Part shown: piece by piece, positions 9,701 to 63,688 of the stretch | Position numbering within the stretch: position 1 is the first letter of the stretch | Layout: every line of letters begins with the position of its first letter | Origin: an uncultured Oscillospiraceae bacterium | GTDB lineage: Bacteria; Bacillota; Clostridia; UMGS1883 | DNA length: 64,000 nucleotides | NCBI GenBank assembly: GCA_964385605.1 | Contig: CAYLPQ010000001.1 | Coordinates: 77,896-141,895, forward strand | Direction of reading: 5' to 3' | The notes under the pieces: generated by a model | Told to the model about the DNA's origin: nothing | What the model saw: only the letters and a program-made list of their open reading frames with translations | Database searches by the model: none | Program-made: the position numbers and the translations under genes

Positions 9701-9963
9701 AATATATAGCGGTTACCACTTGTATCAACTTCTGTTCCTATATTGTTTCCGTTTTCACGCACTGTAATATTGTCAAATGGAGAATATTTGCCATAATAGC
9801 TATCATCAAAATTTTTTACAAAGTACAGCTCGCCACTCTCTTTGGTCACCTTTTCAGCAAAAGAAACTACTGGACATACAGACAGCAAAAACAAGCACAA
9901 CGTCCATAAGGCAACTACTTTTTTCATAAGCCTAGTTCTCCTTATCATTTTCTTTTTTATCAT
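6769..9963 (-). CDS. secreted heparinase II/III-like (polysaccharide-lyase-like) protein, 1064 aa
   Basis: A signal peptide lies within MIKKKMIRRTRLMKKVVALWTLCLFLLSVCPVVSFA. The C-terminal region has GHGHCDTGTF and RPEGHNCLVINPD, the hallmarks of the Hepar_II_III fold seen in PL12/PL15/PL17/PL21-like enzymes. It is a paralog of the partial ORF 1..3165. Confidence 0.6.
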   Translation of the reverse strand: MIKKKMIRRTRLMKKVVALWTLCLFLLSVCPVVSFAEKVTKESGELYFVKNFDDSYYGKYSPFDNITVRENGNNIGTEVDTSGNRYIFFEKYSPDYEYGTGEGNSNIEKILSEAINEKKMVVQFDVMPKETATKIGLMLTDSTGTNTHSVWLVNDKVCGIENILNANEWTTIRVVCDFSVDKPYITVYANDIQIETRETVIIDLWRIRFHSEKSYTAGTYCFDNFVFYSGEPVFDNTVYDLEYKSIVNADNNKSEGVSAISIYGDYIINGKKGNDAEIVKYSNGRILISCKKLEELFNTEINIGGYLLYDAALAEFGKKALYDDRGFIYWSDDGGVAELSDSLKWTLHNELMYERPSSEYLIDNIKKDHPRLSIPEGRIDEIKQEINAYEYAKWYFEIGKTRIDDEYSGKLLNDASNKQNVMMKARTLLSRVKNLALWYHLMEDSSASDANEYEIKENVKDRIWENVEAVINDDDFPHWQPNSGLDNAEMATAVAYAYDWLYEEWNDTQKKAMEEALYKKALVYAVKNYGGQIGGNSSWWINSKNSNQNAVINGGYILCALAIMDKYPEEAGFVLEKAIRSVEKFQNSFYPDGAWLEGTTYWTYSMQYWVPAVSSIKISYGKDFGMIHSPGLEKSPEYIMYAASIQQNNNYHDSEQNLSVYSMGSFYGLAALYNEPLWADWKLTYDWHHKVYYGITTLINFPASYAKVLDDIKLPKDAAIQRDAVGSFREEWLDSNGMFLSYHGGYAYPGHGHCDTGTFVYEYDGVRFAVDLPSESYSFAGSLLDTYRTRPEGHNCLVINPDESPGHNTSAFSPIEKFETNEYGGYSILNMTDAYVNYASSVRRGFKTDDNRNSMIIRDEIEGIKSAGKVYWFMHTMADTVIEIQEDAKTAILTKSGKSIKFELLTDAPNFELTVMSAEPLATSPQTAGQSDNSKYKKLAVVADCSENGNMYIQAKLSPMGDDIMPSENVQLDEWKCDDFTEIIYKTDKNIRAEVRTKNLFPFIVVYKGKELYSIHPAKDNTYDGMSAFCEIPEGNEFSAKLYVWDSEEKLAPLTEALPINTKE

Positions 9964-12244: not shown

Positions 12245-14326
12245 TCACATAACGTTCTTTCTGTAACAGCTGAGCTCATATTCAATTACATAGTCAATGT
12301 GCTTAATTTTCCAACGTATGCGCTCCTCATCCCCCATATATTCCATAGACGGCTCCCAACCCAGGCGGGAGTCTTTTCTTACAAACTCAATTGCTTTTTC
12401 TGCGTTTTCCTTTTCGCGCAAAAGGAGTTTCTCCATTTGGTCAGCAAGCATTAAAATACTTTCAGCATTATTCTCGGATTTAATCTTTGCGGAGAACTTA
12501 TACCAGTATTTTGCATTTATTCCTGTAGTAACATAACAGCAAATGTATTCTCCCATATTCACAAGATAACACAGTTCTTCGTTTTTCTCCGAAATACCCT
12601 GAAGGATATCCGTTCCTTGCCGCATTAACTCGTACATTTTTTCCAGAGATTTTATCTCTGTATCAACCCGCATAAAGGGAAGCATTCCTCTTCCTGTTGG
12701 AAGTCCGTTTGTAGGATGATAGTCAGCCGGATACATTGTAAACATAATACGATTTCCGAAATGTGCATAACTCTCACCTTTTGGCTTCATTTCGCGAATT
12801 AAGCAGAAAGGATATGCCGGGCCGATTCTGAATGCTCCGTACTGGTCTGCATCGCTGGGTATATAATGAGTGATTGCATCACTCCATAATTTAAGTGCCT
12901 GACAGATTCTTTCAGCATTTTCCTCTCCGTATCGGGCAGAAATAACATCATTCAAGCATTTTTCACTATCGGTGTTTTCTTTAATGAAGCACTGTTTAGC
13001 AAGGTCCCCGATAAATGAAGGCCAAAAACCAAAATGATGAGATTCCATAACACCGCACAAACCCCATTTTTCGTTAGCCTCACGAAGACCCTTGTATCTT
13101 TTCATCCACTGATAAGGCATCGGCTCATAGGGCACAACACCCATATCCCATGTAGTACCACCGGTATTTGCCATTGTATACATACGGATACCACGTTTTT
13201 TTGCTGCTTCAGCCTCCGACTTAAAGTATTCGCCAGGGCCATGCAACGACAAGGTATAATCTGCTGTAAATTCAGTAATATCGTCTATTTTATAGCTCTC
13301 AAACATTTCAAAGGTTGCCATAAGGGTAATATCTGTCGGAAGGGAGTTTATAAGCTTCAGACGGTTTTCCTTATCAACATATCCCCAGTTATAGGTCCAG
13401 AAAACAATATCTGCATCCTTTTTCTGATTTCTTACCGCCTTTTTCACACATTCGAGCCACTGGGGATAATCATAACACGGCCACCAACCGGCAGACGGTT
13501 TTCCTGTGGGGAATCCATCCTTGTCAACCTTTTCCCTTGTTGGAGTAACATTAGGATCTTTGCTTGGAAATCCCACCGACTCCCCGACAAGTATAACACC
13601 TTTAAGGGAAGGACAATTTTTAAACAGTGTCCCGTAAAGGTTATCATAAAATTCCTGTGCATCTTCTTCCTCGGGATGCTTTTCGCTTTTTAAATAGCTG
13701 TAGGCATATACATCTATTCCGTAACGCGACGCACGATAAATGAGCTCGTTAAAATCAACGAACCCCGTGCTCGTCATATTAACACCTTTGACAAAAATCA
13801 GTATTGCATCCATTCCTGCGTGTGCAATAGATGCAAGATGTTCATTGGGGAAATTGTCTATTCCATAGCCTGAATGCACCATTCTGGGAGAGAACAGGTA
13901 CGTGTGTCTTATTTCCTCTTTTTTAAGAATTGGTGCTTTTTTCACATTCATTCTGTCCTCAAGACAGTAAAAAGCCTGTGCCACTCCTCTGTCATTTTTT
14001 CCGGAAATGGAAATACTGTCACCAATCTTTATTATGTAGTCTTCAGACTGATTTTCGTCAACAGAGCATAAAATGGCATTATCTGAAATTTTCTCATCCG
14101 AAATCATTGCAGATATTTTCATTGAGGTAAAAAGATAGCCTGTAAAATCTTTTGCCCCTGTAATTATAACCTCTGTACAATTTTCAGGCACAATGATATT
14201 TAGTCCGTTCTTCAGTTCAAGCTCGTTCTCGTCAGGAAGAATGTCAAAATTTCTGACATTCTTCCTGTGGATATTTAGTAGCCTTTTCCTAAACTCATAT
14301 TTTTGTTCATTCTTAAGCATATACAC
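12245..14326 (-). CDS. uncharacterised cytoplasmic 693-aa protein, putative glycoside hydrolase or phosphorylase (paralog of 21012..23129)
   Basis: There is no signal peptide. It shares long blocks with ORF 21012..23129: FSPRMVHSGYGID-FP, GMDAIL-F-KG-NMT, GV-LVGESV-FPS-DPN, GWWPC-DYP-WL, DIVFWTYNWG, GLCG-MESHH-GF-PSFI and YGAFRIGPAYPFC. I could not assign a family from memory. Confidence 0.5.
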   Translation of the reverse strand: MYMLKNEQKYEFRKRLLNIHRKNVRNFDILPDENELELKNGLNIIVPENCTEVIITGAKDFTGYLFTSMKISAMISDEKISDNAILCSVDENQSEDYIIKIGDSISISGKNDRGVAQAFYCLEDRMNVKKAPILKKEEIRHTYLFSPRMVHSGYGIDNFPNEHLASIAHAGMDAILIFVKGVNMTSTGFVDFNELIYRASRYGIDVYAYSYLKSEKHPEEEDAQEFYDNLYGTLFKNCPSLKGVILVGESVGFPSKDPNVTPTREKVDKDGFPTGKPSAGWWPCYDYPQWLECVKKAVRNQKKDADIVFWTYNWGYVDKENRLKLINSLPTDITLMATFEMFESYKIDDITEFTADYTLSLHGPGEYFKSEAEAAKKRGIRMYTMANTGGTTWDMGVVPYEPMPYQWMKRYKGLREANEKWGLCGVMESHHFGFWPSFIGDLAKQCFIKENTDSEKCLNDVISARYGEENAERICQALKLWSDAITHYIPSDADQYGAFRIGPAYPFCLIREMKPKGESYAHFGNRIMFTMYPADYHPTNGLPTGRGMLPFMRVDTEIKSLEKMYELMRQGTDILQGISEKNEELCYLVNMGEYICCYVTTGINAKYWYKFSAKIKSENNAESILMLADQMEKLLLREKENAEKAIEFVRKDSRLGWEPSMEYMGDEERIRWKIKHIDYVIEYELSCYRKNVM

Positions 14327-18737: not shown

Positions 18738-20129
18738 CTATATACTATACATTGACAAATATTTCTTTGTGTTCTGTATCATTTCGTCAAATAACTTCCG
18801 TGCACTTTCCACATCAAGAGTTACAAGGGGATCGTTTACAAATGCATTGAATACACCCTCAATATCCCTGTTAGTAATTGCGGCATGAACTGCTTCCTGC
18901 TCTGCACATATTCTGGAAACAAGAGGATATATACTTTCAGGAATCCCGCCTGACATTACAGGCATAACACTGTCTGAACGGAAAACGGCATTTGTTTCAA
19001 CAACTGCTCCCATGGGAAGATTGGGAATCTGCCCTGTGTTTGGAATGTTTACATTTGTAACAAGGTCGCACAGTCCCACAAGAGCCCTTATTTGATTTAT
19101 ACCTTCCTCACCCGTTTTGTCAATTTTTACAGTTTCTTCACCGCTTCTTAATCTCTCGCTTCGTGCAATACGTTCCTTAAGCTCTTCTTTTCTGCTGTCA
19201 ACAGTTGTAAGAGCAAACCCCCATTTTTCTACAGTTTCCGGGTCTTTAAGGTACCATTTCCCTTCACAGAATTCCGCAAGATGTCTGTCGCCTGCGGCGG
19301 CAATGTAACCGTAGCGTTTAAAAAGGTCTATCTTTACCTTTTCCATACATTTAAGGTTTTTATTTGCCCAATTATCGTGAAGAGTTTCAGCATAGCCACA
19401 GTCAGAATATTTTTCGGCAAACTTACTGTACACCGGAAATAAATCCATATTCTTGTATTTTGCGGAAGTAATCCAGGTAAAGTGATTCACCGCAACGGGT
19501 GTAACCTTTATATCTTCTCTTTTTACATCCTTGATTCCGCAGATTTCTTCAAGCGCGGTCATAAGAACTTTCTGTGTGCCGAAAACCTCGTGACAGCATC
19601 CGAAAGCTTTGATTTCAGGGAAGGTTTTATAAAGAGTTTTTACACACAGTGTCATTGGGTTTGTGTAACTTATAACCCATGCATTCGGACAATATTCTTT
19701 TATATAATTTGCTATTTCTTCATACATAGGAACTGTACGCATCGCACGCACTATGCCTCCCGGGCCTGATGTATCTCCGACAGATTGATAAATTCCGTAT
19801 TTTTCAGGAGTATGTACATCAGAATACATTTCATCAAATGTTCCGGGCAAAATTGAAATTATAACAAAATCTGCATCAGTCATAGCCTCTTTTGCGGTTT
19901 TTACAGCATGGTAATTCCATACAGTATTTGCACCTTCGGCATTGTTAAATTTATTTCCTATAATTTCATTTGCAATTGCTGCATCATAATCGATATCATA
20001 AAGAAACACATCGCCGCTGATATCACTGCAGCTAGCAAGGTCACTCATAAGCCCCCAAGCCCAGCCACGGCTTCCGCCGCCGACATAAGCGATTTTTATA
20101 TCTCGCACACAATCTTTTTCAAATTTCAT
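18738..20129 (-). CDS. lplD: family 4 glycoside hydrolase (NAD+/Mn2+-dependent; LplD alpha-galacturonidase/alpha-glucosidase-like)
   Basis: The N-terminal IKIAYVGGGSRGWAWGLMSDLA Rossmann motif and a length of 463 aa are typical of GH4. The gene lies in the same region as the lplABC-like transporter. The symbol is by analogy only. Confidence 0.7.
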   Translation of the reverse strand: MKFEKDCVRDIKIAYVGGGSRGWAWGLMSDLASCSDISGDVFLYDIDYDAAIANEIIGNKFNNAEGANTVWNYHAVKTAKEAMTDADFVIISILPGTFDEMYSDVHTPEKYGIYQSVGDTSGPGGIVRAMRTVPMYEEIANYIKEYCPNAWVISYTNPMTLCVKTLYKTFPEIKAFGCCHEVFGTQKVLMTALEEICGIKDVKREDIKVTPVAVNHFTWITSAKYKNMDLFPVYSKFAEKYSDCGYAETLHDNWANKNLKCMEKVKIDLFKRYGYIAAAGDRHLAEFCEGKWYLKDPETVEKWGFALTTVDSRKEELKERIARSERLRSGEETVKIDKTGEEGINQIRALVGLCDLVTNVNIPNTGQIPNLPMGAVVETNAVFRSDSVMPVMSGGIPESIYPLVSRICAEQEAVHAAITNRDIEGVFNAFVNDPLVTLDVESARKLFDEMIQNTKKYLSMYSI

Positions 20130-20143
20130 GATAATCCACTCTC

Positions 20144-21025
20144 CTATTTAATTTCCCAGCCATTTTCACTATTTAAAAGACGCATTATAACAGGACGTTC
20201 ATCCTGCACAGGCTCGTTGGGCTTGTGCATAATAAAATACTCATTACCGCAAATATCCTCAAATATCATTCCGTGTCCGCCATTTTTATCCGAAACAGGA
20301 TTTTGAAGAACTTGCCAGTTTCCGTCTATATCCCCATTGTCGCTTTTTGCGATAAGCTCTGCATATCCGCTCCGGGTAAAGCTGGACCACAGGCAATATA
20401 ACTCACCATCTGTATTTCGTTTTAAAAACGGTCCGTCAGTAACAAAAGCAATCTCGTTTTCTCTTACGGTTTTTACACCTTTAAAATCAGATGCTTTCCA
20501 CAGTGTTTTGGGGACAGAAACGACTTCAGTCAAATCTGCCGAAAGCTGCACTTCACAGATTTCTCCGTCACCTGTCTGCAACCATTCATGACAAAAAACA
20601 ATGTGAGGGGCACCCTTTTTGTCAATATACAGAGTCCCATCAAGACATTCCCAATCGCGAGGAGTTACCGGGCAGTCTGATACCGGCACAAAATTGCCGT
20701 CAGGTGTATCAGAAACAAGAATATGCGTACCACGGCACTCTTTTTCTGACTTAAACGTGGCGAACATATAAAATTTTCCGTTGTAAAAATACACTTCCGG
20801 CGCCCAGAAATCCATGGTTCCCCAGAAACCATCTTGTTTCTCAAAAACGGATTTTGGTTCGTTCCAGTTTTTCAGGTCCTTGCTTACATAAACATCAAAC
20901 CCGGTTTGTTCACCCCATGGTTTTTCTTTTGTCGGCATGCCTACTCTTGAACCGTACATATAATATTTATTTTCCCACAACAAAATAAAAGGATCTCTTA
21001 TATTTATTTTTTCAAGTTTCATCAT
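20144..21025 (-). CDS. GH43-family glycoside hydrolase (beta-xylosidase/arabinofuranosidase-like five-bladed propeller)
   Basis: The N-terminal IRDPFILLWENKYYMYGS has the catalytic Asp motif. Internal WAPE and FYMFAT blocks are also present. The protein is cytoplasmic. Confidence 0.7.
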   Translation of the reverse strand: MMKLEKINIRDPFILLWENKYYMYGSRVGMPTKEKPWGEQTGFDVYVSKDLKNWNEPKSVFEKQDGFWGTMDFWAPEVYFYNGKFYMFATFKSEKECRGTHILVSDTPDGNFVPVSDCPVTPRDWECLDGTLYIDKKGAPHIVFCHEWLQTGDGEICEVQLSADLTEVVSVPKTLWKASDFKGVKTVRENEIAFVTDGPFLKRNTDGELYCLWSSFTRSGYAELIAKSDNGDIDGNWQVLQNPVSDKNGGHGMIFEDICGNEYFIMHKPNEPVQDERPVIMRLLNSENGWEIK

Positions 21026-23129
21026 AAACCTCTTTTGTAAGATTATGCTTTATTCCTTCTTTCAGTGCATTTATCTCGAAGTTCAGCAGATACTCCATCT
21101 GACGTATTTTCCATTTAATATGCTCCTCGTCTCCCAGATATTCCATCGATGGCTCCCATCCTAACCGTGAGTTTTTCTGAACAAGAGGAATGGCAGATTT
21201 TGCATTATCAATTTCAAGCAAGGCAATTTTCTCAAGTTCTTTAATGTACTTATTAATTACATTCGGATCATCCGAAGAATAGAGCCTTGTTCGCGCAACT
21301 GTATAGGTCTTTACATTTATTACACTACGGACAGTACACGCAATGAATTTTCCCAATTCAATAAGCTCCTCTAGTTCATCATTACATAACTCTATGCTTT
21401 CAAGAATATTAATTCCTTTCAGCAAATGATGCTCTAACACCTCAAAGGATTTTATTTCACGGTGTATTCTTATAGGAGAAACACTGATTTGGGTATTGCT
21501 GTCAAAGAAAGGATAATATGCTGAAGTTAAAATGCCTGTACCAAAATGTGCGTAATCAGCCTGCGGCGGTTTTATTTCACGATGCATACAGAACGGATAT
21601 GCCGGACCTATTCTGAATGCTCCGTATTGATCATCACACACTGCTATATAATGAGTAATTGCCTCACTCCATTCAAGCATTGCTTCATTAACTTTTTCAA
21701 CATTTTCTTCTCCGTATAAATTGCCAAGAAGTTCCTTTAAAATATTCTTTCTCGGCTTATCTGAAATTGTAAAACTCCATTTTGCAAACTCACTGATAAA
21801 TGATGGGTAAAATCCGTAATGATGTGACTCCATTAATCCGCATAAGCCGTATTCTTCTCTGCATTCAAGCAGTGCATCATATCTTTTTTGCCATTGATAT
21901 GGGAACGGCTCGTAGGGGATTACACCAAAATCCCATGTAAGACCTGCCGTATTTGCCATAGCATAAAGTCGAATGCCGTTCTCCTTTGCTGCTTTTGCCT
22001 CTGACAAGAAGCACTTTCCCGGTCCTGTTAACGACAATGTGTAATCCGACACATTTTCCATAACTCCGTTTTTTTCATAAATCTCACTCTTTTCAAAGGT
22101 TGCAAGAAGAGAAATATCCTCTGGCAAAGATTCTATGAGCTTTATGCGATCTATTTCGGGTGCGCCTCCCCAGTTATAGGTCCAGAATACAATGTCCGCC
22201 TCACTATTGTATTTTCTGATGACCTTTTTCAATAGATTCAACCAATCCGGGTAATCACAGCAAGGCCACCAGCCGGGATGCGTTTTTAAGTTTGGAATTC
22301 CGTCAGGACTTTTTCTTGAAATGCTTCCTGTAGTATTCGGGTCGTGACTTGGAAACGCAACTGATTCACCTACTAAAACAACACCCTTCAAGCCGGGACA
22401 TTCACGGAAAAGCTTACCGTAACTCCCATCATAATAATCATATGCCCCTTCATCATCCGGATGCATTTCACTTTTTAAATAGCTGTACGCATAAACGTCT
22501 ATGCCGTATTTAGCCGCTCTGCAAACTAACTCATTAAAGTCAAGAAACCCGTATGTTGTCATATTAGAGCCTTTTGTAAAAACCAAAATGGCATCCATCC
22601 CTGCGTGAGCAATATCACGCAAGTGACAATCTGGGAATTGGTCAATTCCATAGCCGGAATGGACCATTCTTGGAGAAAATGCAGCTTTACATTCTATAGT
22701 TTCTTTTTTAAGGAAAGGCGCTTTACGCAGTGTCATCATATCCTCCATACGGTACAATGCCTGTGCAACACCTCTTTCATCATGGGCTAAAACTTTTATG
22801 CTTTCTTCCACGGACAAACGGTATCCCATATAACCGTTACCTGTAGTCAATTGCTGTTCTTTATCAAAATCTATGCTGATAACTTTTTTGCCGGTTTCTT
22901 TTTTGCGCGCTATCATAACAGACACATTCATCGAAATGAGCATATACTCCTGAAAATCTTTTGCAGCCGTAAGAACGACATCACTGTCTGTTTGCGAGAT
23001 GTCAATTACAAACCCGTCTGTGATTACAAGTTCATCCTCACCGGGCATTATAGATACATTAACTATATCTTTTTTATGAATTTGCATCATTCTCTTTCTG
23101 AATTCATAATTTTTTTCGAGTTTTCTCAT
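21012..23129 (-). CDS. uncharacterised cytoplasmic 705-aa protein, putative glycoside hydrolase or phosphorylase (paralog of 12245..14326)
   Basis: It shares the same conserved blocks as ORF 12245..14326, for example GWWPCCDYPDWL, DIVFWTYNWG and GLCGLMESHHYGFYPSFI. There is no signal peptide. Confidence 0.5.
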   Translation of the reverse strand: MRKLEKNYEFRKRMMQIHKKDIVNVSIMPGEDELVITDGFVIDISQTDSDVVLTAAKDFQEYMLISMNVSVMIARKKETGKKVISIDFDKEQQLTTGNGYMGYRLSVEESIKVLAHDERGVAQALYRMEDMMTLRKAPFLKKETIECKAAFSPRMVHSGYGIDQFPDCHLRDIAHAGMDAILVFTKGSNMTTYGFLDFNELVCRAAKYGIDVYAYSYLKSEMHPDDEGAYDYYDGSYGKLFRECPGLKGVVLVGESVAFPSHDPNTTGSISRKSPDGIPNLKTHPGWWPCCDYPDWLNLLKKVIRKYNSEADIVFWTYNWGGAPEIDRIKLIESLPEDISLLATFEKSEIYEKNGVMENVSDYTLSLTGPGKCFLSEAKAAKENGIRLYAMANTAGLTWDFGVIPYEPFPYQWQKRYDALLECREEYGLCGLMESHHYGFYPSFISEFAKWSFTISDKPRKNILKELLGNLYGEENVEKVNEAMLEWSEAITHYIAVCDDQYGAFRIGPAYPFCMHREIKPPQADYAHFGTGILTSAYYPFFDSNTQISVSPIRIHREIKSFEVLEHHLLKGINILESIELCNDELEELIELGKFIACTVRSVINVKTYTVARTRLYSSDDPNVINKYIKELEKIALLEIDNAKSAIPLVQKNSRLGWEPSMEYLGDEEHIKWKIRQMEYLLNFEINALKEGIKHNLTKEVYDET

Positions 23130-23185: not shown

Positions 23186-25279
23186 TTAATTTTCATTAAG
23201 CATATTCATTACTTCAACTCCGGCACTTAATACAACACCTACACCGTGATCGTCATTTTCTATGGTATCAAGCTGCATATAATACTTTTCTTCCATATTA
23301 CAGCCTGAACCCATACATATTCCGTATACATTGCCTTTTTCGTCAATGCAGTTTCTGCATAATGATTTCCACGCATCATTTATTTCTTCTTTATATTCAG
23401 AAGATATCCAGCCGTTTACAATCCCTCTTGCAAGTGCTGTAATAAACATTGCACTGCCACTTGTTTCAATGTAGCTATCGGGGTTATCTATCACCTGGTG
23501 CCATATGCCTTTTTCTTTGTCACGGTATTTAAGAACACCCCGGGCAAACTTCTGAAAAACTGAAAGTATTTCTTCCCGCCCGTGATAATCTTCCGGCAAA
23601 AGCAGGAGCACCTCGGAAAGAGCAAGCAAAACCCATCCATTTCCTCTGCCCCATGGTACACGGTTAGCTTTATCTTCTTCCACGAAGAATATATGGGAAA
23701 ACAAATCCTTATCCTCCATATAAAGCCGCTTGTAAAACCCTCTTATCTGGATAAGAATATCATCAAAATAACATTCATTACCGCTTATCGCACCAAGACG
23801 AGCCATAAACGGAAGACACATATACATATCATCTGTCCACATAGTTTTTATGCGGTAAAATGTTCCGTCGGAGAATCTTGGTATTTTGTACGTAAGAACA
23901 TCACCAAGGATATTAAACAGATTCTCTGCATTGGAATCATTGGACATCATATAATATTCCGCAACATTTGTACCAATCGTTCCTATTGCGTCAAGACTTT
24001 TTATTCTTCCTCCGGTTGCAAGATATGATGCATATCCCGAACGTTCATTATCAACCGCACCATAATCACGGTGCAGGCAAAGAAGTTTCATACTTTCCGA
24101 AAAATATTGGTCAAAATCCTTTTTGCCAAGCTTCTGCGCGGCTTGCTTCATACCATAGAGTCCCACCATAATCGCATAAAACCATTTTCCGTAAAATGCA
24201 CTGTGAAGATATTGCCGAAGGTAAGTATTTTCCCTGTAAAAATTCCAGTACACACTTCCTCCCCAGGCCGTAGCATAAGGCTTAATAAATCCAAGTTCTG
24301 TTTCCGGTCCGTAGGGATAATCTACATTCTCTCCTTTTCTTCCGAAAGGACCTATCCATATCCACTGCAAATCAGGACAGTCAGCTCCGTCTATAAATGG
24401 AAGGCTGTGCTCGCCGGAAGTTTCAGCCGTAAAGCCCCACACATCTTCCTGGCGTGTGCTTTTTATCAAAAGCGGTGTATCACAGTTAAAGTTCTCTTCA
24501 AAAGCTCCGTTTTCAGAGTTATATATAATCTTATCCCCTGAAAAAACTTTAAGAGGATTTTTATGTTCAATTTTGATTTTTCCTTTTACACAGGTATAGG
24601 CATAAGCTGTGTAACCGTTTTTACACAATTTGGTAAAATCAAAAGTTTTTATATTGCTTTGAGGTGGTAAAACCGGATATACCCATTCAATTTCTTTAAT
24701 ATTCGGTTCTTTCTCTCCATTTTTATAAAGGCGGGAAAACTCAAGCAATTCCTGAAGCCTGTACCCCCTTTTTTTTACGTACTGCCAGGTGCAGTAAGCA
24801 TAGTCTCCGCCCGTTCCATATCTTAATTTGGGAACAAGAGGGAAAACATATACCGAAAAGTTTTCTTTCTCTGCAACTGCTTTTACAACTAGACGGTTCT
24901 CGCCTTTTTTGAAAGTTACGTATGTATCAAGAGTGTTATTGGGGCCGGTAGAAAGTATCTTTTCCTTTCCGTTAAAATACACCTTCGCTTCTGCACAACC
25001 TCTTATATTTATGAGTATTTCCCTTTCGTGGAGTCCTTCAAGGTAAGTTGATATATAAGCATAATCACCCTTATTATAACCGGGATAAACTTTTCCAAAA
25101 TCAACACCGGGTTTGTTTGACATATCAACATATTCATCATTTCGATACGGTCTGTATGATACCTTTGATTTCGGTCTGTATTTCAATGCATTCTCAAAAA
25201 TCTGATTGACAATTTCTCTGTTAGTTTTATGTTTTTCATTTATTGAATGTTCAACATATGTTCCCATAAATATCACCAT
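23186..25279 (-). CDS. GH88/GH105-like unsaturated uronyl hydrolase domain with a ~330-aa N-terminal extension
   Basis: The C-terminal half contains ANRVPWGRGNGWVLLALSEVLLLL, the GH88/GH105 (alpha/alpha)6 signature. It is a paralog of ORF 58510..60669. The track start is TTG; the ATG at 25277-25279 or the next ATG (MGTYVEH) is more likely. Confidence 0.65.
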   Translation of the reverse strand: MVIFMGTYVEHSINEKHKTNREIVNQIFENALKYRPKSKVSYRPYRNDEYVDMSNKPGVDFGKVYPGYNKGDYAYISTYLEGLHEREILINIRGCAEAKVYFNGKEKILSTGPNNTLDTYVTFKKGENRLVVKAVAEKENFSVYVFPLVPKLRYGTGGDYAYCTWQYVKKRGYRLQELLEFSRLYKNGEKEPNIKEIEWVYPVLPPQSNIKTFDFTKLCKNGYTAYAYTCVKGKIKIEHKNPLKVFSGDKIIYNSENGAFEENFNCDTPLLIKSTRQEDVWGFTAETSGEHSLPFIDGADCPDLQWIWIGPFGRKGENVDYPYGPETELGFIKPYATAWGGSVYWNFYRENTYLRQYLHSAFYGKWFYAIMVGLYGMKQAAQKLGKKDFDQYFSESMKLLCLHRDYGAVDNERSGYASYLATGGRIKSLDAIGTIGTNVAEYYMMSNDSNAENLFNILGDVLTYKIPRFSDGTFYRIKTMWTDDMYMCLPFMARLGAISGNECYFDDILIQIRGFYKRLYMEDKDLFSHIFFVEEDKANRVPWGRGNGWVLLALSEVLLLLPEDYHGREEILSVFQKFARGVLKYRDKEKGIWHQVIDNPDSYIETSGSAMFITALARGIVNGWISSEYKEEINDAWKSLCRNCIDEKGNVYGICMGSGCNMEEKYYMQLDTIENDDHGVGVVLSAGVEVMNMLNEN

Positions 25280-25380: not shown

Positions 25381-25399
25381 TATCTTTGAGGTGATAAAA

Positions 25400-26209
25400 A
25401 TGCTGTTAAAACCGATTGAAGTTCCTCTTTTTGAAAAGAAATCCATTGAGGGGCGCCGTAAGATGCCCAAAGCACATTTTCATGATAAGCACGAGCTTTA
25501 TTACCTTGAAGAAGGACAGACAAAATATTTCATTGATACAGAAATATTTATCCTTGAGCCAGGCGATATGATTTTTATACCGAAAAATACACTTCATCGT
25601 ACAGAAAGCCTTGAATCAGAATCTGTCAGCCGTTCAATTCTTTATTTTAACGACTTTGATTTTGAGGATGAGCTTGCACCTTTTATTGAAAAACTTAAGC
25701 CCAGAAGGCTTATTAAAATCCAGCACAAAAAAATGCACTATATCCGTGGTCTTCTTGCCGAAATTGCCGAAGAAGAAGAAAAAAAGAAAGACGGATACCG
25801 TCAGATGCAGATGCTTTTCCTTAAACAGCTTGTTGTTATGATAGAAAGATATTGTATTGATAATGTTGAAAACAACATCAGTTCTTCGTACAGAGTTGCT
25901 GAAAACATTTCGAAATATATCAGGGAACATTACAACGAAAATTTAAGTCTTGCACACCTTTCCCGCGAATTTGCGATGACACCGTCGTATCTGTCAAGAA
26001 TTTTTAAGAAAAGCACCGGCATCAGCCTTAACGAATATATAAACATTGTAAGAATTACAGAGGCGGAAAAGCTTCTGAAAAATCCGGATATTTCTATAAC
26101 AGAGGTAGCTTTTGAGTGCGGTTTCAATGACAGCAATTACTTTTCATCCGTTTTCAAAAAAGCAAAAGGAATTACACCGAAAAAATTCTCAAAAATGAAT
26201 ATGGCATAA
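25400..26209 (+). CDS. AraC-family transcriptional regulator (cupin-like ligand domain + HTH_AraC)
   Basis: The C-terminus LAHLSREFAMTPSYLSRIFKKSTGISLNEYINIVRITEAEKLLKNPDISITEVAFECGFNDSNYFSSVFKKAKGITPKKF is the AraC signature. The track start is GTG at 25391; I prefer the ATG nine nucleotides downstream, which has GAGGTG. It is the only plus-strand gene in the window. Confidence 0.85.
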   Translation: MLLKPIEVPLFEKKSIEGRRKMPKAHFHDKHELYYLEEGQTKYFIDTEIFILEPGDMIFIPKNTLHRTESLESESVSRSILYFNDFDFEDELAPFIEKLKPRRLIKIQHKKMHYIRGLLAEIAEEEEKKKDGYRQMQMLFLKQLVVMIERYCIDNVENNISSSYRVAENISKYIREHYNENLSLAHLSREFAMTPSYLSRIFKKSTGISLNEYINIVRITEAEKLLKNPDISITEVAFECGFNDSNYFSSVFKKAKGITPKKFSKMNMA

Positions 26210-30174: not shown

Positions 30175-32964
30175 TTAATCGTATTGTGAGTTCATATTTG
30201 TTATAACAACAAGGTCGTATACCGTACCGTCAATACGTTTTAAAAGAACCTTTGTATCCGGATTGAAATTCTCGTAACCTTTTGCTGTAAGCTGTGCCGC
30301 TGACGGAATTTTATCTCTAGTTATAACCTTGACTTCTTTTGTTTCGCAATCAAATTCAAATATGGACATTGAGCTTGATTCTGACTGAAGGATTGTCGTC
30401 CAGAAGGTTTCTTCAGTAGGGGTCTTATTTCCAGACATATTAATATAGTCTGCATTGGCTTTACTGTAAGTGCTGATTTTGTTACTGCCTACATGACACG
30501 GATAGCCCAGAATATAATAGTTTTCGTCATCGTTAATTTCTGTCTGTCCGTTCATGTCAAAATAAGTGTAATCGGGGTCAGTATCCCTCTGGGGAGAATA
30601 TACAATCCTGGCCCTGCTTATTCCCTCTTCATTATCAAAACCGATTTCAAAAACATCACCTGCAAGGATTTTTCCGTTGCTATCAGGGTAACGTTTTTTT
30701 ACTGCCTCGGAAAGAATGCCATCATATGATTCAACAAAGGATCTGAAGTCCTGTGCCCACCAACCGTTTATAGCCTGTTTGAATTCCCCGTCAAAGTCCT
30801 TCTGCACATAGGCTTCGGTAACTACAAAGAGTCTTGAATTTATATCTAGCGGTTCAGACACTACAATCGCTCCGGCTTCCCATCCGTCATCCGCATCATA
30901 AAGCTTAAGATAACAGCTACCGTAACGTCTTGTATAAGCCGTATAATCAATAACACTGACCAGTTCTTCGTTGGTTTCTTCCACAGTTTTAGAAGTGGTG
31001 TTAACGGCAAAAATTTTAGTATTTGAAGTTATAATCTGATTTCCGTTATAGGTTCTCAATCCATTTATACTCTTTGTTGAATATCCTGATTCACTTACAA
31101 AATCAAGGCTGAAGTTCTCAAGGTCAAAGCCGAACATTGAGCCTGTATTATCAGTTGCGGAGTCAAGCTCCTTCAGTTTTCCGTCAGAGTTTATTCTCAC
31201 CATTACAAGCTGCGGCTTGATATTGCCTGTCGCTGCATCGAAGAAAATACTTGATGAAAGGATGTCATTACCGGTCTTATTTTTTATGCCGTCAAAAGTC
31301 AATTTATCGGCAACCGGAACTGTTACATAATCATTGCTTTCAAGAAGAAGCTTTACACTTACTCTACCGCCGTCAAGTCCCTGTCCTGTCTTTCCTGCAT
31401 CCAGCATATAAGCATACTGGAGTCTGCCTTGTGTTTCAATAAGCATCGCTATGTTTCCCTCATAGTTAAGAAGCACTCTATATGACGACCCCGGCACAGG
31501 GGCATTAAAAGTTACCGGCTTTGTATTCATAAGGGTTTCATAGGTATTGGAAAATTCGTAAACCATATCACCAAATATAACTCTTATTTTTCCGTCTTCA
31601 GCTGTTTCGACAGATTCTGCAACAATTTCCAAAGTCAGCTCGGAAACAATAAAACGAATTTTTTCATTATTCTTGCTTCTGAATACCGATACAACACTGT
31701 TTTCCTTTATGCCGTCGGGCAAAATTTGCTCACCTGCGGCATTCTGGAAAATGCAAGTTTTATATTCTCCGTAATTTATAAACGCATAATCATCCTCGGA
31801 ATAAGTTGCCACAAACTTTTTTGTCTCTGCATTGCAATTTTTAAAAACAATATCGCGGTATTCCTCTGCTATTACTGTTTCATAGTCACCGTCCATATCT
31901 GCATCGATAAGCTTTAGGGTTCCGTCCTTAATTTTGAGGGTTTCGCCGTTAAAGGTTTTGTCAAGACCTCCGTTATAGATAAGGTTGGCATACGGGTCTA
32001 TCCTATATTTTTTCTTTTTACCGTTAATTTCCGCAGTCACACAAGTCTTGGAAAAATCTCCGGACTCTGTCAGAAGTTCATAAGCTTTTACTGTTACGAT
32101 GTCATTTCTGCCTGTTTTTTCACTGACATAAAGCAGTGCATTATTATCCTGCTTATAGTAATACTCTACATAACAACCAAGAAATTCTCTTTCCCGGTCA
32201 TCTGTCCCTGTGAGAACTTTTTTACCTATTTTACTACAATCAATCGCAAGAGCCGTTTCTCCGTTTATCGCAGTAATACCGTTATCTGTCATAACACCTT
32301 CGCCGATATAGATACTATGATATACGTTAAGCGCTGTGTTATCCTCATAGCTTGCAAAATAAGCCTTATCATTTGTGAGGTAAACAATTTCATAGACCTC
32401 TGCTTCTGCAGATAACTTTATAAGGTTTGCCGCTGTATCAAATGTAAGAGGTGCATCAAAATCGTAGGGTGGATTATCTACAATACCGATATTATATGCA
32501 CAACGCAAGTATCCATCCGAATAACCTCCTGCTACTGTAGCCGCCGGGGTATATCCAAGAGCAGTAACAACCGTTTTTATCGCCTGCCTGTATGTAATAG
32601 GTTCGTCCGGTAAAAATCTCCCGTCTCCCACACCATTCATAATACCCAAGGCTGCCATAGCATCAATTTCACAGGCATAAAGATTACTTTGCGGAACATC
32701 AGTGAAACAGTTATTAGTGTTATAATCTTTGTTTATCCCTAAAAGATCTGCAACCATTTTGGCAAATGTAGCCCTGGAAACTGTAGAGTCCGGCTTTTCT
32801 TCGGGAAAACTATATATTTCAAGGAATGTTATGAAATCGACATTTTTCTCATAATCTGCAGTGTCTGTTACCGATGTCTTATTTTCCTCCTGTGCGAAGG
32901 TTGGCATTCCGGACACAAGCAGTGCTATCAGCAGGACAAGCGCAGTTATTTTATTAAATCTCAT
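30175..32964 (-). CDS. cell-surface protein with three N-terminal SLH domains and a large beta-rich C-terminal region (929 aa)
   Basis: After the signal peptide (MRFNKITALVLLIALLVSGMPTFA) come SLH-like repeats: FTDVPQSNLYACEIDAMAALGIMNGVGDGRFLPDEPITYRQAIKTVVTALGY and flanking repeats. Confidence 0.65.
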   Translation of the reverse strand: MRFNKITALVLLIALLVSGMPTFAQEENKTSVTDTADYEKNVDFITFLEIYSFPEEKPDSTVSRATFAKMVADLLGINKDYNTNNCFTDVPQSNLYACEIDAMAALGIMNGVGDGRFLPDEPITYRQAIKTVVTALGYTPAATVAGGYSDGYLRCAYNIGIVDNPPYDFDAPLTFDTAANLIKLSAEAEVYEIVYLTNDKAYFASYEDNTALNVYHSIYIGEGVMTDNGITAINGETALAIDCSKIGKKVLTGTDDREREFLGCYVEYYYKQDNNALLYVSEKTGRNDIVTVKAYELLTESGDFSKTCVTAEINGKKKKYRIDPYANLIYNGGLDKTFNGETLKIKDGTLKLIDADMDGDYETVIAEEYRDIVFKNCNAETKKFVATYSEDDYAFINYGEYKTCIFQNAAGEQILPDGIKENSVVSVFRSKNNEKIRFIVSELTLEIVAESVETAEDGKIRVIFGDMVYEFSNTYETLMNTKPVTFNAPVPGSSYRVLLNYEGNIAMLIETQGRLQYAYMLDAGKTGQGLDGGRVSVKLLLESNDYVTVPVADKLTFDGIKNKTGNDILSSSIFFDAATGNIKPQLVMVRINSDGKLKELDSATDNTGSMFGFDLENFSLDFVSESGYSTKSINGLRTYNGNQIITSNTKIFAVNTTSKTVEETNEELVSVIDYTAYTRRYGSCYLKLYDADDGWEAGAIVVSEPLDINSRLFVVTEAYVQKDFDGEFKQAINGWWAQDFRSFVESYDGILSEAVKKRYPDSNGKILAGDVFEIGFDNEEGISRARIVYSPQRDTDPDYTYFDMNGQTEINDDENYYILGYPCHVGSNKISTYSKANADYINMSGNKTPTEETFWTTILQSESSSMSIFEFDCETKEVKVITRDKIPSAAQLTAKGYENFNPDTKVLLKRIDGTVYDLVVITNMNSQYD

Positions 32965-34798: not shown

Positions 34799-37699
34799 TT
34801 ATTTTCCATCCTTTCCCGAGATGACTTTTACGTCGACAGAAATAATCGTGGCAGGACTACCTGCAGCACCTACACGGAAATCTGTTCCTAATAAATCCAT
34901 ATTTCCCAGACATATATCGTCAAACTTAAAGGTCTGTGTTACAATCTTGCCGGTATTTTTTCTATCAATATAATTTTTTTCAGTGGTAACCTTGTTCACA
35001 TATTTATGCGAATTCTGAATCCATCTGTGGTAATAGAACGTAATGGGAAGAGTTGTATCATCTTTGTAGGTTATGGAAATCTCTGCCGCTACGTTGTCGC
35101 TATCTACTACCTCGCGCTTTACGTTTACATAAAGCTCTTTTCCTGCAGGAACTTCAGTTCCAACATATGTACCGTCTTCTGCGTAGAGAGGATTTACATC
35201 AAATGCAAAATCACCCTCGTATGCGATGGCATCACAGGATTCGGAAATGTCATATCTTCCGCCGGAGGCAGGATTACCGGTGATATCAGAAACATCTGCC
35301 CAACCGAACTGTGCTATTTTGAAAGTTTCATCCCAGCAACCAAAGATTGCATAAGTGTTTTTTGGACTCATCTGGGGATGAAGATGTCCGGGATTTGCGG
35401 AGTTTTGAGGGAGGAATGCGATTGTTTCTGTAGCACCGGTCTCGGCATCAATCACAAAAAGTCCTGAAAGCTTCGCTGATGAACCGTATTTATTATCTGC
35501 AGCAATCCATCTGCCGTCATGACTTATCATTGAGTGATTAGTACCTGTACCTGCACTTCCAAGAATTGTGGGGGCGATACCGTAGTCCGCCTTTATATAT
35601 CTCTTGTCAGTACCATCAATTCTCTGCAAAAGGAAATTTGTATCAGGACCAACAAATCCACGCATTCCGTCAACATAAGTGGAACTGCCTACCTTGCCAA
35701 TCCACTCACCGTCATAAGACCAGAACTCGTGACCGGCATTTTCGCCGACGTAACCGCTGCCGGGCTTTTCGGGGTCAGGAGATCTGAACCATTTTTGTTC
35801 AACTATGTTATAGTATTCGTCAGTATCAGTATTTACAATCCATACTCGCTCGGGATTAAGACTTCCCTCGTAAAAATACGCAAGAGTTGCATTTGATGTT
35901 TCGTGAGCAAAGAAATACAGATTACTGTACTTTGGGTTTGGATTTATGCACGGATGATTAGGTGCATAGTCAGGAAAATCAAAACCGTAGTAATGACTTA
36001 AATCCCATTCACCGGTTTTAATGTCAAATATAGGGAATCTGGTCATCAGCTTGTTGTCAAATTCACCGCTGTTATCTGCCCACCAAACACTTAACTTTGA
36101 TTCGTCATTGTTAACCTGCAAAAGTGATGGAGAACTCTTTTGCCACTCCGGAAGCTTGCCTATAAAAGTTGCTTCATATGTGTCAAGATCAAGCTTCCAT
36201 ATTTCGTATTTTCTGTTTATATACCACAAATTGTTAAGAGGGGTAACCATACAGTTGTTTTCGTTGGGAGAATCTGAAATGTATTTACACATTTCTGTCT
36301 TAATATTATATTCCCATATTTTATTGTCCGCAGTTCTGAAATAAATTCTGGTTTCATCCATAGACATACAGTTCATAGTAAAATACGGTTTTATTGCATT
36401 CTGTCCAAAGAAGTTAACTGTGTAATAGGTTCTGCCCGTATATTTATCTACATACGTTTTCTTGGGAATCTTAAAATCCGTACTCATAAGCCAATCCCAG
36501 ATATTGTCATCGTTTGCGTTGGCAAGGGTTTCCATATTGTAATCTCCAGAATTCATACCGTCTGTAAACGGACAGTAACCTGTATCGGGATTAGTCATAG
36601 AAAAACAGTTCATTGCCAGAAGCACAAACGCATCAACGTCGGCATTTTTCTCCGGTTGGAAAAGCATACTTCCCACCGTAATGAGTTTTTTGTCTTTTGC
36701 AAGCTGATAAACGTCGGTCTCTTCGGTTACATTTTCACCAATAAGCTTAAGATACCACTCTACAAGCTCTTTCTGCGTAAAATAATCTTTTGCACCGAGT
36801 GTATCGCCTTTTTCTATAATTCCAAGCTCAATTGCCATTGCCACATAGGGATCCGCCTCGGGACTCACATCGCTAAAGCCTGATTTTATATTTTTCGAAA
36901 GAGCCTCATCTTCCATTCTGTAGGTTTTTATAAGCTGTGTAAGCGCCTCTTCCCTCGTAAGCTCTTTGTCAAGGCGGGGTTCAAAAACTTCTCCCTCACC
37001 GTATCCGTCAAAAACCTCAAGAGTATGAAGTGAGTTTGCTTTTTGCCTGTTAAATGTGCCTATCTTTTCGCCAGGCTTTGCAGTACGGCTTATGTTACGC
37101 ACCTCTACCTTGGAGAATGAGTTATATGCACCTGAACGTATTCTTATATCTGCACCGTTATCAAATTTTCCTGTAAATTCCGCATCATCAATATGTATCC
37201 TTACACGGAACCAGGTTCCCTGTGTTTTAACACCGTTTTCGTCAAGACCAAGCTTGTATACTCTTTCAGATTTAGTGGTCGTTGAACCCCTCGGTTGATA
37301 TTCCACGTAGAAATATCCGCCTCCGCCATAGTCCCAATAGTCAAGTATTATTTCAAAAACACTGTCGTCTTTACCTGCAAAGTTCTCATCAAGCTTGAAA
37401 TAGAAGTAGTTCTCAACATAAACCTGTCGTGCCTCTACCCCGTTCCATTCAACCTTTTCACTGTAAAGTTCACTGTATCTGCCCTCTTCCTCGGAGCCAA
37501 GATAAGTCATCTTATCCATTTTCGGCCGACTACTGAAAATGATTGATGCATTTTCGGAATTTGGGGTATCAGGACCTGTTACGGCAGTCTGCATTGATGC
37601 GTAATCATCATCTGATGCTGCAAAAGTATTTACCGCAAAAAGGACAGACATTATTAAAATAAACGCAAAGGATATTAATCCAATTCTTTTCCTTTTCAT
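34799..37699 (-). CDS. secreted 966-aa beta-propeller-like protein (function unknown; possible lyase or binding module)
   Basis: The signal peptide is MKRKRIGLISFAFILIMSVLFAVNTFA. A long beta-strand-rich region has repeated W/Y-rich blades. One SLH-like segment appears mid-protein (FSDVSPEADPYVAMAIELGII). Confidence 0.45.
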   Translation of the reverse strand: MKRKRIGLISFAFILIMSVLFAVNTFAASDDDYASMQTAVTGPDTPNSENASIIFSSRPKMDKMTYLGSEEEGRYSELYSEKVEWNGVEARQVYVENYFYFKLDENFAGKDDSVFEIILDYWDYGGGGYFYVEYQPRGSTTTKSERVYKLGLDENGVKTQGTWFRVRIHIDDAEFTGKFDNGADIRIRSGAYNSFSKVEVRNISRTAKPGEKIGTFNRQKANSLHTLEVFDGYGEGEVFEPRLDKELTREEALTQLIKTYRMEDEALSKNIKSGFSDVSPEADPYVAMAIELGIIEKGDTLGAKDYFTQKELVEWYLKLIGENVTEETDVYQLAKDKKLITVGSMLFQPEKNADVDAFVLLAMNCFSMTNPDTGYCPFTDGMNSGDYNMETLANANDDNIWDWLMSTDFKIPKKTYVDKYTGRTYYTVNFFGQNAIKPYFTMNCMSMDETRIYFRTADNKIWEYNIKTEMCKYISDSPNENNCMVTPLNNLWYINRKYEIWKLDLDTYEATFIGKLPEWQKSSPSLLQVNNDESKLSVWWADNSGEFDNKLMTRFPIFDIKTGEWDLSHYYGFDFPDYAPNHPCINPNPKYSNLYFFAHETSNATLAYFYEGSLNPERVWIVNTDTDEYYNIVEQKWFRSPDPEKPGSGYVGENAGHEFWSYDGEWIGKVGSSTYVDGMRGFVGPDTNFLLQRIDGTDKRYIKADYGIAPTILGSAGTGTNHSMISHDGRWIAADNKYGSSAKLSGLFVIDAETGATETIAFLPQNSANPGHLHPQMSPKNTYAIFGCWDETFKIAQFGWADVSDITGNPASGGRYDISESCDAIAYEGDFAFDVNPLYAEDGTYVGTEVPAGKELYVNVKREVVDSDNVAAEISITYKDDTTLPITFYYHRWIQNSHKYVNKVTTEKNYIDRKNTGKIVTQTFKFDDICLGNMDLLGTDFRVGAAGSPATIISVDVKVISGKDGK

Positions 37700-40847: not shown

Positions 40848-41885
40848 TTATACTTTAATACGTCTTCCGCTTTGCTGACTTTCATAAACTGCTTCTACAA
40901 TTTTCTGATTAAAAATAGCTTCTGCTGCGGTTACGGGTACGTCTGATCTTTCAATTATTGCGTCAGAAAATTTTTCTATTTCTTTTGTGTACATGTTTCC
41001 ACCTGTATACTCAAGAGGTTTCATTACAACAGCACCTTCATCTGTAATGGTTTTAAGCTTTACACTTCCACTTTCAATCTGTCCTATTGTTCCATCAGCA
41101 GATATTACACCTTTAGTGCCGTAAATTTCAAATTTACATCCTCCGATTGCATCCGGAATATTGAAATTCGCCTCAACCGTGAATAAGGCTCCGTTTTCCA
41201 TACGAAGAACTGCACTGGCGGCATCCTCGGTGTCAGGATATTCAAAAATCTGATTACCGCACATACCTGTAACTTCTTTTGTTTTAAGCGATGTAAGGTA
41301 CTGAAGCAAGTCAATACAATGAATACCCATATCCATCATCGTTCCACCGCCGCTGAATGCTTTTGTCTGCCTCCATTTTACGGGAGAAACAGGCGACCAG
41401 CAATTGAATTTAGCATAAGCTGACACAATTTCACCTAATGCACCTTTTTCAACATATTCCTTAATAAGCTGATGGGCGCTGTGAAATCGCATCATAAAAC
41501 CTACTCCCAGAAGAACATTTTTACCTTTACAGTAGGATTCTATCTGACAAGCTTCTTCACTTGTAACCCCCATAGGCTTTTCAAGCAAGATATGCTTGCC
41601 CTTATCAGCTGCTTTAAAAACTTGTTCCTTATGACAAAATACAGGTGTTGCAATATAAACAGCATCGATATCCTGTTCAAGAAGTGCATCCACACTGTCA
41701 GTTGCAAAAGATGCGTTATATTTGTTTTTTACATTTTCAGCAACTTCTGCATTTATATCCATTACAGCATAACATTCTGCATTTTCAGCAAGCATCATTC
41801 CCGGTATTGTTCTTCTGTCAGCAATACCGCCGCAGCCTATTACACCCCATTTGATTTTTTTCATATAATTACTCCTTTTTATCAA
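40848..41885 (-). CDS. Gfo/Idh/MocA-family NAD(P)-dependent oxidoreductase
   Basis: The N-terminal KIKWGVIGCGGIA Rossmann motif and the ILLEKP motif are present. The gene overlaps the upstream gene by 4 bp, so translational coupling is likely. Confidence 0.8.
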   Translation of the reverse strand: MIKRSNYMKKIKWGVIGCGGIADRRTIPGMMLAENAECYAVMDINAEVAENVKNKYNASFATDSVDALLEQDIDAVYIATPVFCHKEQVFKAADKGKHILLEKPMGVTSEEACQIESYCKGKNVLLGVGFMMRFHSAHQLIKEYVEKGALGEIVSAYAKFNCWSPVSPVKWRQTKAFSGGGTMMDMGIHCIDLLQYLTSLKTKEVTGMCGNQIFEYPDTEDAASAVLRMENGALFTVEANFNIPDAIGGCKFEIYGTKGVISADGTIGQIESGSVKLKTITDEGAVVMKPLEYTGGNMYTKEIEKFSDAIIERSDVPVTAAEAIFNQKIVEAVYESQQSGRRIKV

Positions 41886-61764: not shown

Positions 61765-61776
61765 AGTTTTTCTCCT

Positions 61777-62589: not shown

Positions 62590-62591
62590 AG

Positions 62592-63614: not shown

Positions 63615-63688
63615 TTTTTGCCCTTCTTCTTTTTGCATTTGTGCTACATTATACTTTATACAAGAAACAAAGTCAAGAGAAAAAAGCA

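Follow-up and report, generated by a model that had tools for sequence, protein, structure and literature searches.

A clade of GH105 proteins with an uncatalogued tandem jelly-roll module, represented by two genes of an uncultured Oscillospiraceae bacterium

We analysed a stretch of 64,000 nucleotides (nt) from a contig of an uncultured Oscillospiraceae bacterium (hereafter the window), which encodes two long proteins of glycoside hydrolase family GH105 with a large N-terminal module in front of the catalytic barrel. The first gene (paralog 1) is an uninterrupted minus-strand open reading frame (ORF) at 23186..25279 in the ORF list, with the stop codon at 23186-23188 and 697 amino acids (aa) when counted from the ATG at 25279. 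A TTG at 25285 is an alternative start that would give 699 aa. The true start is likely the ATG at 25267 (residue M5), giving 693 aa, since it agrees with the family consensus MGxYCEHSI, follows a GGTGA located 8-13 nt upstream, and is the start called for an identical protein of 693 aa (P0003) found on a public contig. The start position is uncertain by 4-6 codons. The second gene (paralog 2, 719 aa) lies at 58510..60669 on the same strand and was delimited from the ORF list, Pfam and the pairwise alignment; its N-terminal module spans approximately aa 1-360. The two proteins are 31% identical (E-value (E) 2e-105, aligned residues 9-684). When the N-terminal 345 and 360 residues were compared alone, 337 positions aligned at 21% identity with an E of 9e-10, which is real homology and not chance. 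The conservation of the first ~330 residues between two paralogs, proposed in a first-pass annotation of this DNA, is thus confirmed. Another ORF, at 12245..14326 (693 aa), was considered as the second paralog and rejected, as BLASTP shows no relation to paralog 1.

The catalytic half belongs to GH105, not GH88. Pfam profile PF07470 (Glyco_hydro_88) matches aa 365-693 of paralog 1 (E 7.5e-65, 219.6 bits for a cut-off of 26.6) and aa 379-704 of paralog 2 (nt 58558-59535, E 4.5e-55, 187.5 bits for the same cut-off). In paralog 1 the (alpha/alpha)6 catalytic domain was delimited to aa 365-697 (23189..24187) from Pfam, PDB sequence matches, Foldseek and an AlphaFold2 (AF2) model, in which about 11-12 helices occupy aa 368-693. 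The nearest PDB chains by sequence in phmmer searches are GH105 proteins: 3k11 (Bacteroides thetaiotaomicron NP_813087, E 2.6e-39), YteR (E 2.7e-23), and, at about 2e-20, the ulvan-type 4ce7 and CA_C0359 (4wu0). With a profile of 74 family sequences the matches improved to E 5.6e-64 for 3k11 and 1.4e-38 for YteR. The top Foldseek matches of the model were all GH105/GH88 barrels (3k11, E 2.4e-22, TM-score on target 0.71; YteR, E 2.8e-20, TM-score 0.80). The UGL-type GH88 structures (1vd5, 2zzr, 3wiw) were not recovered from the PDB sequences by phmmer or by the family profile and were matched by fold only (Foldseek, E 2.6e-9 or weaker). Since GH105 structures are found by sequence and UGL structures by fold only, we assign the domain to GH105; one chain recovered by sequence, 4q88, has a family-88 entry title. 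Hence, the GH105 part of the earlier "GH88/GH105-like" label stands and the GH88 part does not. The NCBIfam model NF051900 ("beta-galactosidase BglB") scored 87 and 114 bits for the two paralogs, under its cut-off of 420, and a literature search found nothing relevant on this model.

The active site is conserved. The pocket of YteR has been described as Y41, D88, H132, W141, M147, H189, W211 and W217 (PMC4528949). In the profile alignment, D88, W141, D143, M147, H189, W211, R213 and W217 of YteR correspond to D430, W481, D483, M487, H529, W543, R545 and W549 of paralog 1, all of them invariant in 74 homologs, and the core pocket residues stay unchanged even in a far more divergent set of 48 sequences. 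The catalytic Asp143 of YteR, within MWLDGLYM, aligns with D483 (codon at 23831..23833) in the motif MWTDDMYM (nt 23819-23842), and D483 is invariant in both the 74 close and the 48 broader homologs. The absence of this Asp had been put forward as grounds for refuting the assignment; the residue is present. The WGRGNGW motif (aa 543-549, 23633..23653, containing W543, R545 and W549) lies inside the PF07470 match, in the C-terminal part of the ORF as first annotated. YteR Y41 is probably equivalent to Y368, where the alignment stops short of YteR. The sole departure among the mapped pocket residues is YteR H132, replaced by R476, which is invariant in the 74 homologs and is also Arg in 3k11. 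Since the pocket residues, including the catalytic Asp, are kept, we predict a competent glycosidase of the vinyl-ether hydratase type.

The N-terminal ~340 residues of both paralogs had no Pfam or NCBIfam match. A comparison of 17 diverse N-terminal modules with Pfam at E<=10 gave nothing meaningful, including no carbohydrate-binding module (CBM) and no Bac_rhamnosid_N, and profiles of the whole module matched PDB sequences at chance level only. Structure prediction had been suggested in the first-pass annotation. The AF2 model of paralog 1, built from the alignment of 74 sequences, reached a pLDDT of 95.5 and a pTM of 0.92 (the single-sequence run gave a pLDDT of 42); residues 40-360 are beta-rich and the model is confident across all junctions. 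It begins with a helix (aa 20-33) and a conserved strand with the motif RPxxxVxYRPY, together aa 1-54 (25118..25279, from the AF2 secondary structure), in which R35, Y42 and P44 hardly vary among 74 homologs. A first beta-sandwich, D1, follows at aa 55-150 (24830..25117; model strands 73-149), with the motifs VDF, GDYAY, VYFNGE and KKGENRLVVK. A connector at aa 151-205 (24665..24829), defined by conservation and the model, carries a conserved Y160 and an SRLY motif, and leads to the second sandwich, D2, at aa 206-296 (24392..24664; model strands 199-292), with the motifs FDF, AYAYT and WGF. In paralog 2, D1 and D2 lie at approximately nt 60178-60486 and 59713-59994. A lead-in to the helical barrel (aa 297-364, 24188..24391, beginning LQWIWIGPFG and with strands 307-312 and 352-358) is probably part of the catalytic core, because it is kept in a natural 415-aa variant that has neither D1 nor D2.

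The two sandwiches are homologous to each other. The hhalign comparison of the D1 and D2 sub-alignments, which also helped to set their limits, gave a probability of 94% and an E of 1.2e-7, pairing VDF with FDF, GDYAY with TAYAYT, and VYFNG with KVFSGD. We conclude that an internal duplication gave rise to the module. Foldseek matches extending past the barrel were GH78 rhamnosidases (2okx, E 2.2e-8, 834 columns; 3cih; 6gsz), the PL27 enzyme BACCELL_00875 (5no8), and the lectin POL (E 1.6e-7, 325 columns). These multi-domain matches have low TM-scores (0.14-0.31), which means that single sandwiches match and the overall arrangement does not. Run against the PDB, a profile of D1 alone reached E 0.004 with the C-terminal residues 999-1050 of Lmo2446 and E 0.2-2 with GH2 sugar-binding domains; these marginal matches cover about 45 residues and run through the motif VY.NG ... 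G.N.L.V. Taken together, the hhalign, Foldseek and D1 profile results place both domains of the predicted structure among the galactose-binding-like jelly rolls, a known fold in an uncatalogued sequence family.

This two-part architecture is not peculiar to the window. A search with the full-length query returned 75 clusters that span 96-100% of the query and are nearly all 660-740 aa long; two of them were already named "glycoside hydrolase family 105 protein" by NCBI. An exhaustive HMMER search of 1.84 billion representatives with the N-terminal profile gave 109 clusters (55 at E<=1e-10), of which about half are 620-780 aa long and have the match at their N-terminus, and most others are fragments. 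A few unrelated multi-sandwich proteins matched single sub-domains only, and weakly. When the N-terminal 345 aa were used as query in a word-indexed search, only two fragments came back, a misleadingly sparse result compared with the full-length and HMMER searches. PF07470 was present in all 48 long representatives analysed, and 47 of these had no further Pfam domain. The exception, P0081, has histidine-kinase domains in front and is probably a fused gene call.

A pattern scan of species-representative genomes matched at least 594 stretches, of which at least 545 encode relatives. We searched these genomes with the full-length alignment and kept the best 80 of the at least 545 relatives, with their loci (denoted L001 and so on). 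Nearly all of these 80 loci cover the whole query. Their carriers are Clostridia metagenome-assembled genomes (MAGs) from human and ruminant gut, Lachnospiraceae, Oscillospiraceae, Acetatifactor muris, A. aquisgranensis, and several Paenibacillus. The closest relative of the window gene among them (69% identity) is in the Clostridia SGB_6689 MAG JAZRTB01, in which at least 10 long-GH105 genes are spread over separate contigs or loci (L002, L004, L007, L008, L010, L016, L023, L059, L062 and L078), indicating a strong expansion of the system. Natural variants also exist: a 415-aa protein without any jelly roll that starts at the equivalent of W306 (L046:8010-9254, Paenibacillaceae), a 505-aa protein with one jelly roll (L072:2817-4331), and a 765-aa protein with an extended N-terminus (L080:7008-9302). 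The fusion of jelly rolls with GH105 is therefore the infrequent but well-established architecture of a clade, confined to Bacillota and found well beyond the 64-kb window. The earlier view of the N-terminal part as unlike the single-domain GH105/GH88 enzymes is borne out, as it is absent from all solved or characterised ones and matches nothing in Pfam at E<=10. Its description as novel has to be narrowed: the extension is uncatalogued in Pfam, but it is the standard architecture of a clade (75 full-length, 109 clusters) and has a known jelly-roll fold, not a new one. The expectation that it would not be a common fusion fails, given that the fusion is clade-wide.

None of 74 members has a hydrophobic N-terminal run resembling a signal peptide, and we take the enzymes to be cytoplasmic on this basis. 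Downstream of paralog 1, on the same strand (18738..23129), are genes for a 705-aa protein (21012-23129), a GH43 (20144-21025), and a GH4 (18738-20129), none of which has a signal peptide. Judging from spacing and overlap, these three genes and paralog 1 probably form an operon. A divergent gene at 25391..26209 (plus strand) encodes an AraC-family regulator with a cupin sensor and a helix-turn-helix domain, recognised by Pfam, and likely regulates this operon; the same arrangement is found on L001. The 705-aa protein matches no PDB sequence and belongs with the ORF at 12245..14326 to a pair of cytoplasmic paralogs of about 700 aa, 50% identical, without Pfam family and both on the minus strand. 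Homologs of this pair occur in only five of 81 long-GH105 loci. To the eye, the sequence looks like a GH20b/GH67N-type N-terminal domain followed by a TIM barrel, and the pair could thus represent an undescribed glycosidase family.

Elsewhere in the window, the only secreted protein with a Hepar_II_III_C domain is encoded at 6769..9963. Two secreted SLH-anchored proteins of about 900 aa are encoded at 30175..32964 and 51715..54390 (both on the minus strand, 26% identical); Pfam and a PDB profile search recognise only their SLH region, and they are candidates for a depolymerase or a binding protein. A secreted 966-aa protein at 34799..37699 (minus strand) matched neither a Pfam family nor a PDB sequence, and its homologs occur in nine long-GH105 loci. 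Also on the minus strand, a cytoplasmic 956-aa protein (45126..47996) has a PcRGLX-like match below the Pfam threshold, and a secreted 1231-aa protein (48019..51714) has DUF7402, F5/8 type C, FG-GAP and dockerin domains. The sub-threshold RGL11_C match of the latter is the sole basis for the PL11-like lyase suggested earlier. Gene clusters at 40848..42745, 44351..45151 and 60916..63689 (minus strand) encode GFO/IDH/MocA oxidoreductases, a xylose-isomerase-like TIM-barrel protein, metallo-beta-lactamase-fold proteins, and a PIG-L deacetylase. This set calls to mind pathways that cleave glycosides oxidatively (3-keto) and remove N-acetyl groups, more than the classical KduI/KduD route that handles unsaturated uronates. 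The first-pass annotation saw a locus built around lyase, unsaturated-uronyl hydrolase, and deacetylase or dehydrogenase steps. This picture gains only loose support: there is one secreted Hepar_II_III_C protein, the PL11-like and PcRGLX-like matches lie under the Pfam thresholds, and the operon partners of paralog 1 are the 705-aa protein, GH43 and GH4.

In the other genomes, genes for ABC permeases and solute-binding proteins were found near the long GH105 in 24-32 of 81 loci, or 27-32 in the tally over 80 loci, AraC-type regulators in 14 + 14, and GFO/IDH/MocA and FAD oxidoreductases in eight loci each. The commonest secreted neighbour, beside the long GH105 in 19 of 80 loci, is an SLH-anchored protein of about 870-900 aa (e.g., L076:5517-8114 and L004:2537-5410). 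In Paenibacillus, a large secreted protein is encoded directly downstream of the long GH105 (L031:10144-12927, L075:10352-13549, L022:10258-15930, L024:10155-15272). Two of these four proteins have a BNR_4 domain (284-292 bits), one of them together with Hepar_II_III_N and F5/8C domains; the other two are giant proteins with an N-terminal CBM96 (132.5 bits in L022, and 25.5 for a cut-off of 26 in L024). BNR_4 includes the PL25 ulvan lyases and a PL42 lyase acting on rhamnose-glucuronate (Rha-GlcA) (PMC8377490, PMC13193363), and the definition of CBM96 comes from an alginate lyase (PMC9971899). From their domain content, the Paenibacillus proteins are probably lyases for acidic glycans. In eight loci of Acetatifactor and other Lachnospiraceae, a cytoplasmic protein of about 855 aa is encoded directly upstream of the long GH105 (e.g., L033:5365-7929, L051:5243-7801 and L065:5295-7853); the L033 representative has no Pfam match. 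The genomic context fits a route from an extracellular lyase, through ABC import, to a cytoplasmic GH105, with an extracellular partner that varies between loci.

We propose, with moderate confidence, that both genes of the window encode cytoplasmic exo-acting GH105 unsaturated-uronyl hydrolases with an integral, non-catalytic accessory module. An extracellular polysaccharide lyase would make an oligosaccharide whose non-reducing end carries a 4,5-unsaturated uronate. Imported by the neighbouring ABC system, this oligosaccharide would enter the (alpha/alpha)6 barrel at its pocket, where D483 would catalyse the hydration of the C4=C5 vinyl ether. By analogy with characterised members, the barrel very likely follows the established GH105 mechanism, in which the equivalent of Asp143 hydrates C4=C5, the hemiketal collapses, and a 4-deoxy-hexosulose uronate is released (PMC4528949). 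The module would be a clade-specific accessory part, forming one compact body with the barrel in the single-chain model. It may extend or wall the plus subsites, holding or selecting the aglycone of longer or branched imported oligosaccharides, and/or mediate oligomerisation. The beta-sandwich domains of GH78, GH15 and GH65 enzymes contribute to subsite shaping and/or oligomerisation. The analyses show the domain architecture with its duplication, the kept active site, the fusion across the family, the missing signal peptides and the gene neighbourhood, whereas the class of substrate, the function of the module and any contact that it makes with the active site are inferred. The earlier proposal of a fused substrate-binding or oligomerisation domain is a reasonable guess as far as a non-catalytic role is concerned.

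Several observations weigh against this proposal. Sequence change is faster in the module than in the barrel (37% vs. 55% identity in the pairwise mean), and almost no position of the module is invariant in the broader set of 48 sequences, which speaks against an exact, conserved site for binding. The existence of the 505-aa and 415-aa variants implies that the module is dispensable for the folding of the barrel. The replacement of YteR H132 by R476 suggests that the exact substrate may differ from that of YteR. Most loci have no recognisable lyase within 8 kb, and the commonest secreted neighbour, the SLH protein, matches no lyase family, only its SLH region being recognised. Finally, our literature search found no characterised member of the long clade, nor a characterised multidomain GH105 or a fusion of GH105 with CBM67.

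An artefactual origin of the extension (through a start called in the wrong place, a frameshift that fused two genes, or a chimeric assembly) is effectively refuted. The start of the target is indeed uncertain by a few codons and P0081 may be a gene-call fusion, but the architecture is encoded by a single uninterrupted ORF in both window paralogs, recurs in 75 or more clusters and in dozens of genomes independent of one another, those of the cultured Acetatifactor and Paenibacillus among them, and is modelled confidently through all junctions. We reject this explanation because the architecture is conserved family-wide. A change of chemistry in the long clade, which would act for example on a saturated glycoside or on a non-carbohydrate vinyl ether, is very improbable. 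The scarcity of recognisable polysaccharide lyases near the genes would agree with it, as would the Arg at the position of H132, the sub-threshold BglB match, and the at least 10 copies in one MAG, which suggest a broad substrate range. Yet all the residues for vinyl-ether hydration are invariant, the closest structure (3k11) has the same Arg, and the BglB match is far under its cut-off. Moreover, lyase-type neighbours do occur, with Hepar_II_III_C in the window and BNR_4 and Hepar_II_III_N in Paenibacillus.

A more substantial alternative, although still an unlikely one, is that the N-terminal module is a lectin-type CBM of a new CBM67-related family. It would bind, e.g., the L-rhamnose beside the unsaturated uronate, possibly via calcium, and raise the affinity for scarce imported oligosaccharides. 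The tandem duplication of D1 and D2 mirrors the lectin POL of the oyster mushroom, which Foldseek matched along with GH78 rhamnosidases and which is built from a pair of calcium-dependent jelly rolls of the CBM67-like type (PMC11512411). Within the close family, G71-D72 and N128 do not vary; rhamnose is often at the +1 position of known GH105 substrates, and the BNR_4 lyases beside the Paenibacillus homologs come from a family acting on Rha-GlcA linkages. On the other hand, the enzyme is cytoplasmic, the 17 diverse members gave no Pfam CBM or Bac_rhamnosid_N match at E<=10, and the TM-scores to POL are low (0.14-0.27), only individual sandwiches being matched. The GD motif is missing from D2, and the columns conserved at >=90% in the broader family do not include D72. 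The GxNxL motif is structural and not a ligand site, being a hallmark of galactose-binding-like jelly rolls such as the N-terminal domains of GH2. A CBM that targets the enzyme to a polysaccharide is likewise unlikely, given the cytoplasmic location, the compact model (pTM 0.92), and the fast evolution without a strictly conserved site. The same three features lead us to favour an accessory role in the plus subsites and/or in oligomerisation.

The long proteins make up a subfamily of GH105 whose tandem jelly-roll module is uncatalogued, and the potential for novelty lies in their secreted neighbours and in the substrate. GH105 enzymes are regarded as plain cytoplasmic trimmers with a single domain, and the barrel is the only part of the long proteins that domain databases annotate. 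A conserved clade with two jelly rolls, restricted to Bacillota and strongly expanded in some uncultured gut Clostridia, offers a handle on how the length or the branching of substrates is selected after import. It also flags loci whose extracellular depolymerases await identification, with possible leads to new lyase families. In a more speculative version, which we consider quite doubtful, the module would be a new carbohydrate-binding family reading the aglycone of undescribed unsaturated oligosaccharides, and the SLH-anchored ~900-aa proteins and the product of 34799..37699 would be novel lyases. Together they would make up an uncharacterised Gram-positive system for the use of acidic glycans, multiplied in the genomes of some uncultured gut Clostridia to 10 or more loci each. 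The practical gain would be a new GH105 subfamily and the definition of an accessory domain, while the understanding of the chemistry is unchanged. Cultured carriers are available (Acetatifactor muris DSM 23669 and Paenibacillus agaridevorans), and the natural variants of 415, 505 and 765 aa would provide ready-made truncation controls.

The long clade resembles the known GH105 proteins (YteR 1nc5/2gh4, 3k11, 4wu0, 4ce7) in its (alpha/alpha)6 barrel, its PF07470 match, its catalytic Asp, and its pocket of Trp, His, Arg and Met residues. Like them it is intracellular and encoded near importers and lyase-like secreted enzymes. The solved GH105 proteins that we recovered are single-domain and of about 330-445 aa, whereas the long clade, known here from sequence and model, adds some 300 N-terminal residues forming two jelly rolls and has an Arg in place of YteR H132. 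The GH78 rhamnosidases (RhaB 2okx, BT 3cih, Aspergillus terreus 6gsz) and the PL27 5no8 also have beta-sandwiches N-terminal to an (alpha/alpha)6 barrel, and Foldseek aligns 690-834 columns across both parts (E 2e-8 to 8e-6). They differ in the relative placement of the domains (TM-scores of 0.22-0.24), in the lack of sequence similarity, and in their catalytic machinery and reaction; for GH78 alone, 737-834 columns align (E 2e-8 to 5e-6), but with TM-scores of 0.22-0.23 and root-mean-square deviations in the range 20-27 A. The N-terminal domain of GH2, which binds sugars, and the C-terminal part of Lmo2446 (GH31) share with D1 the strand-turn-strand motif vY.NG...(v/l).l..G.N.l.v, over matches of about 45 residues that are near or below significance (E 0.004-2) and from which no function is transferable. 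Also comparable with the module are POL (Pleurotus ostreatus, 6t1d) and the CBM67 of SaRha78A, with two consecutive homologous jelly rolls of about 100-160 residues. In the long clade these domains have no detectable sequence relation to POL or CBM67 and no identifiable calcium or sugar site, their relative orientation is unlike (TM-scores of 0.14-0.27), and they are fused to an enzyme and located in the cytoplasm.

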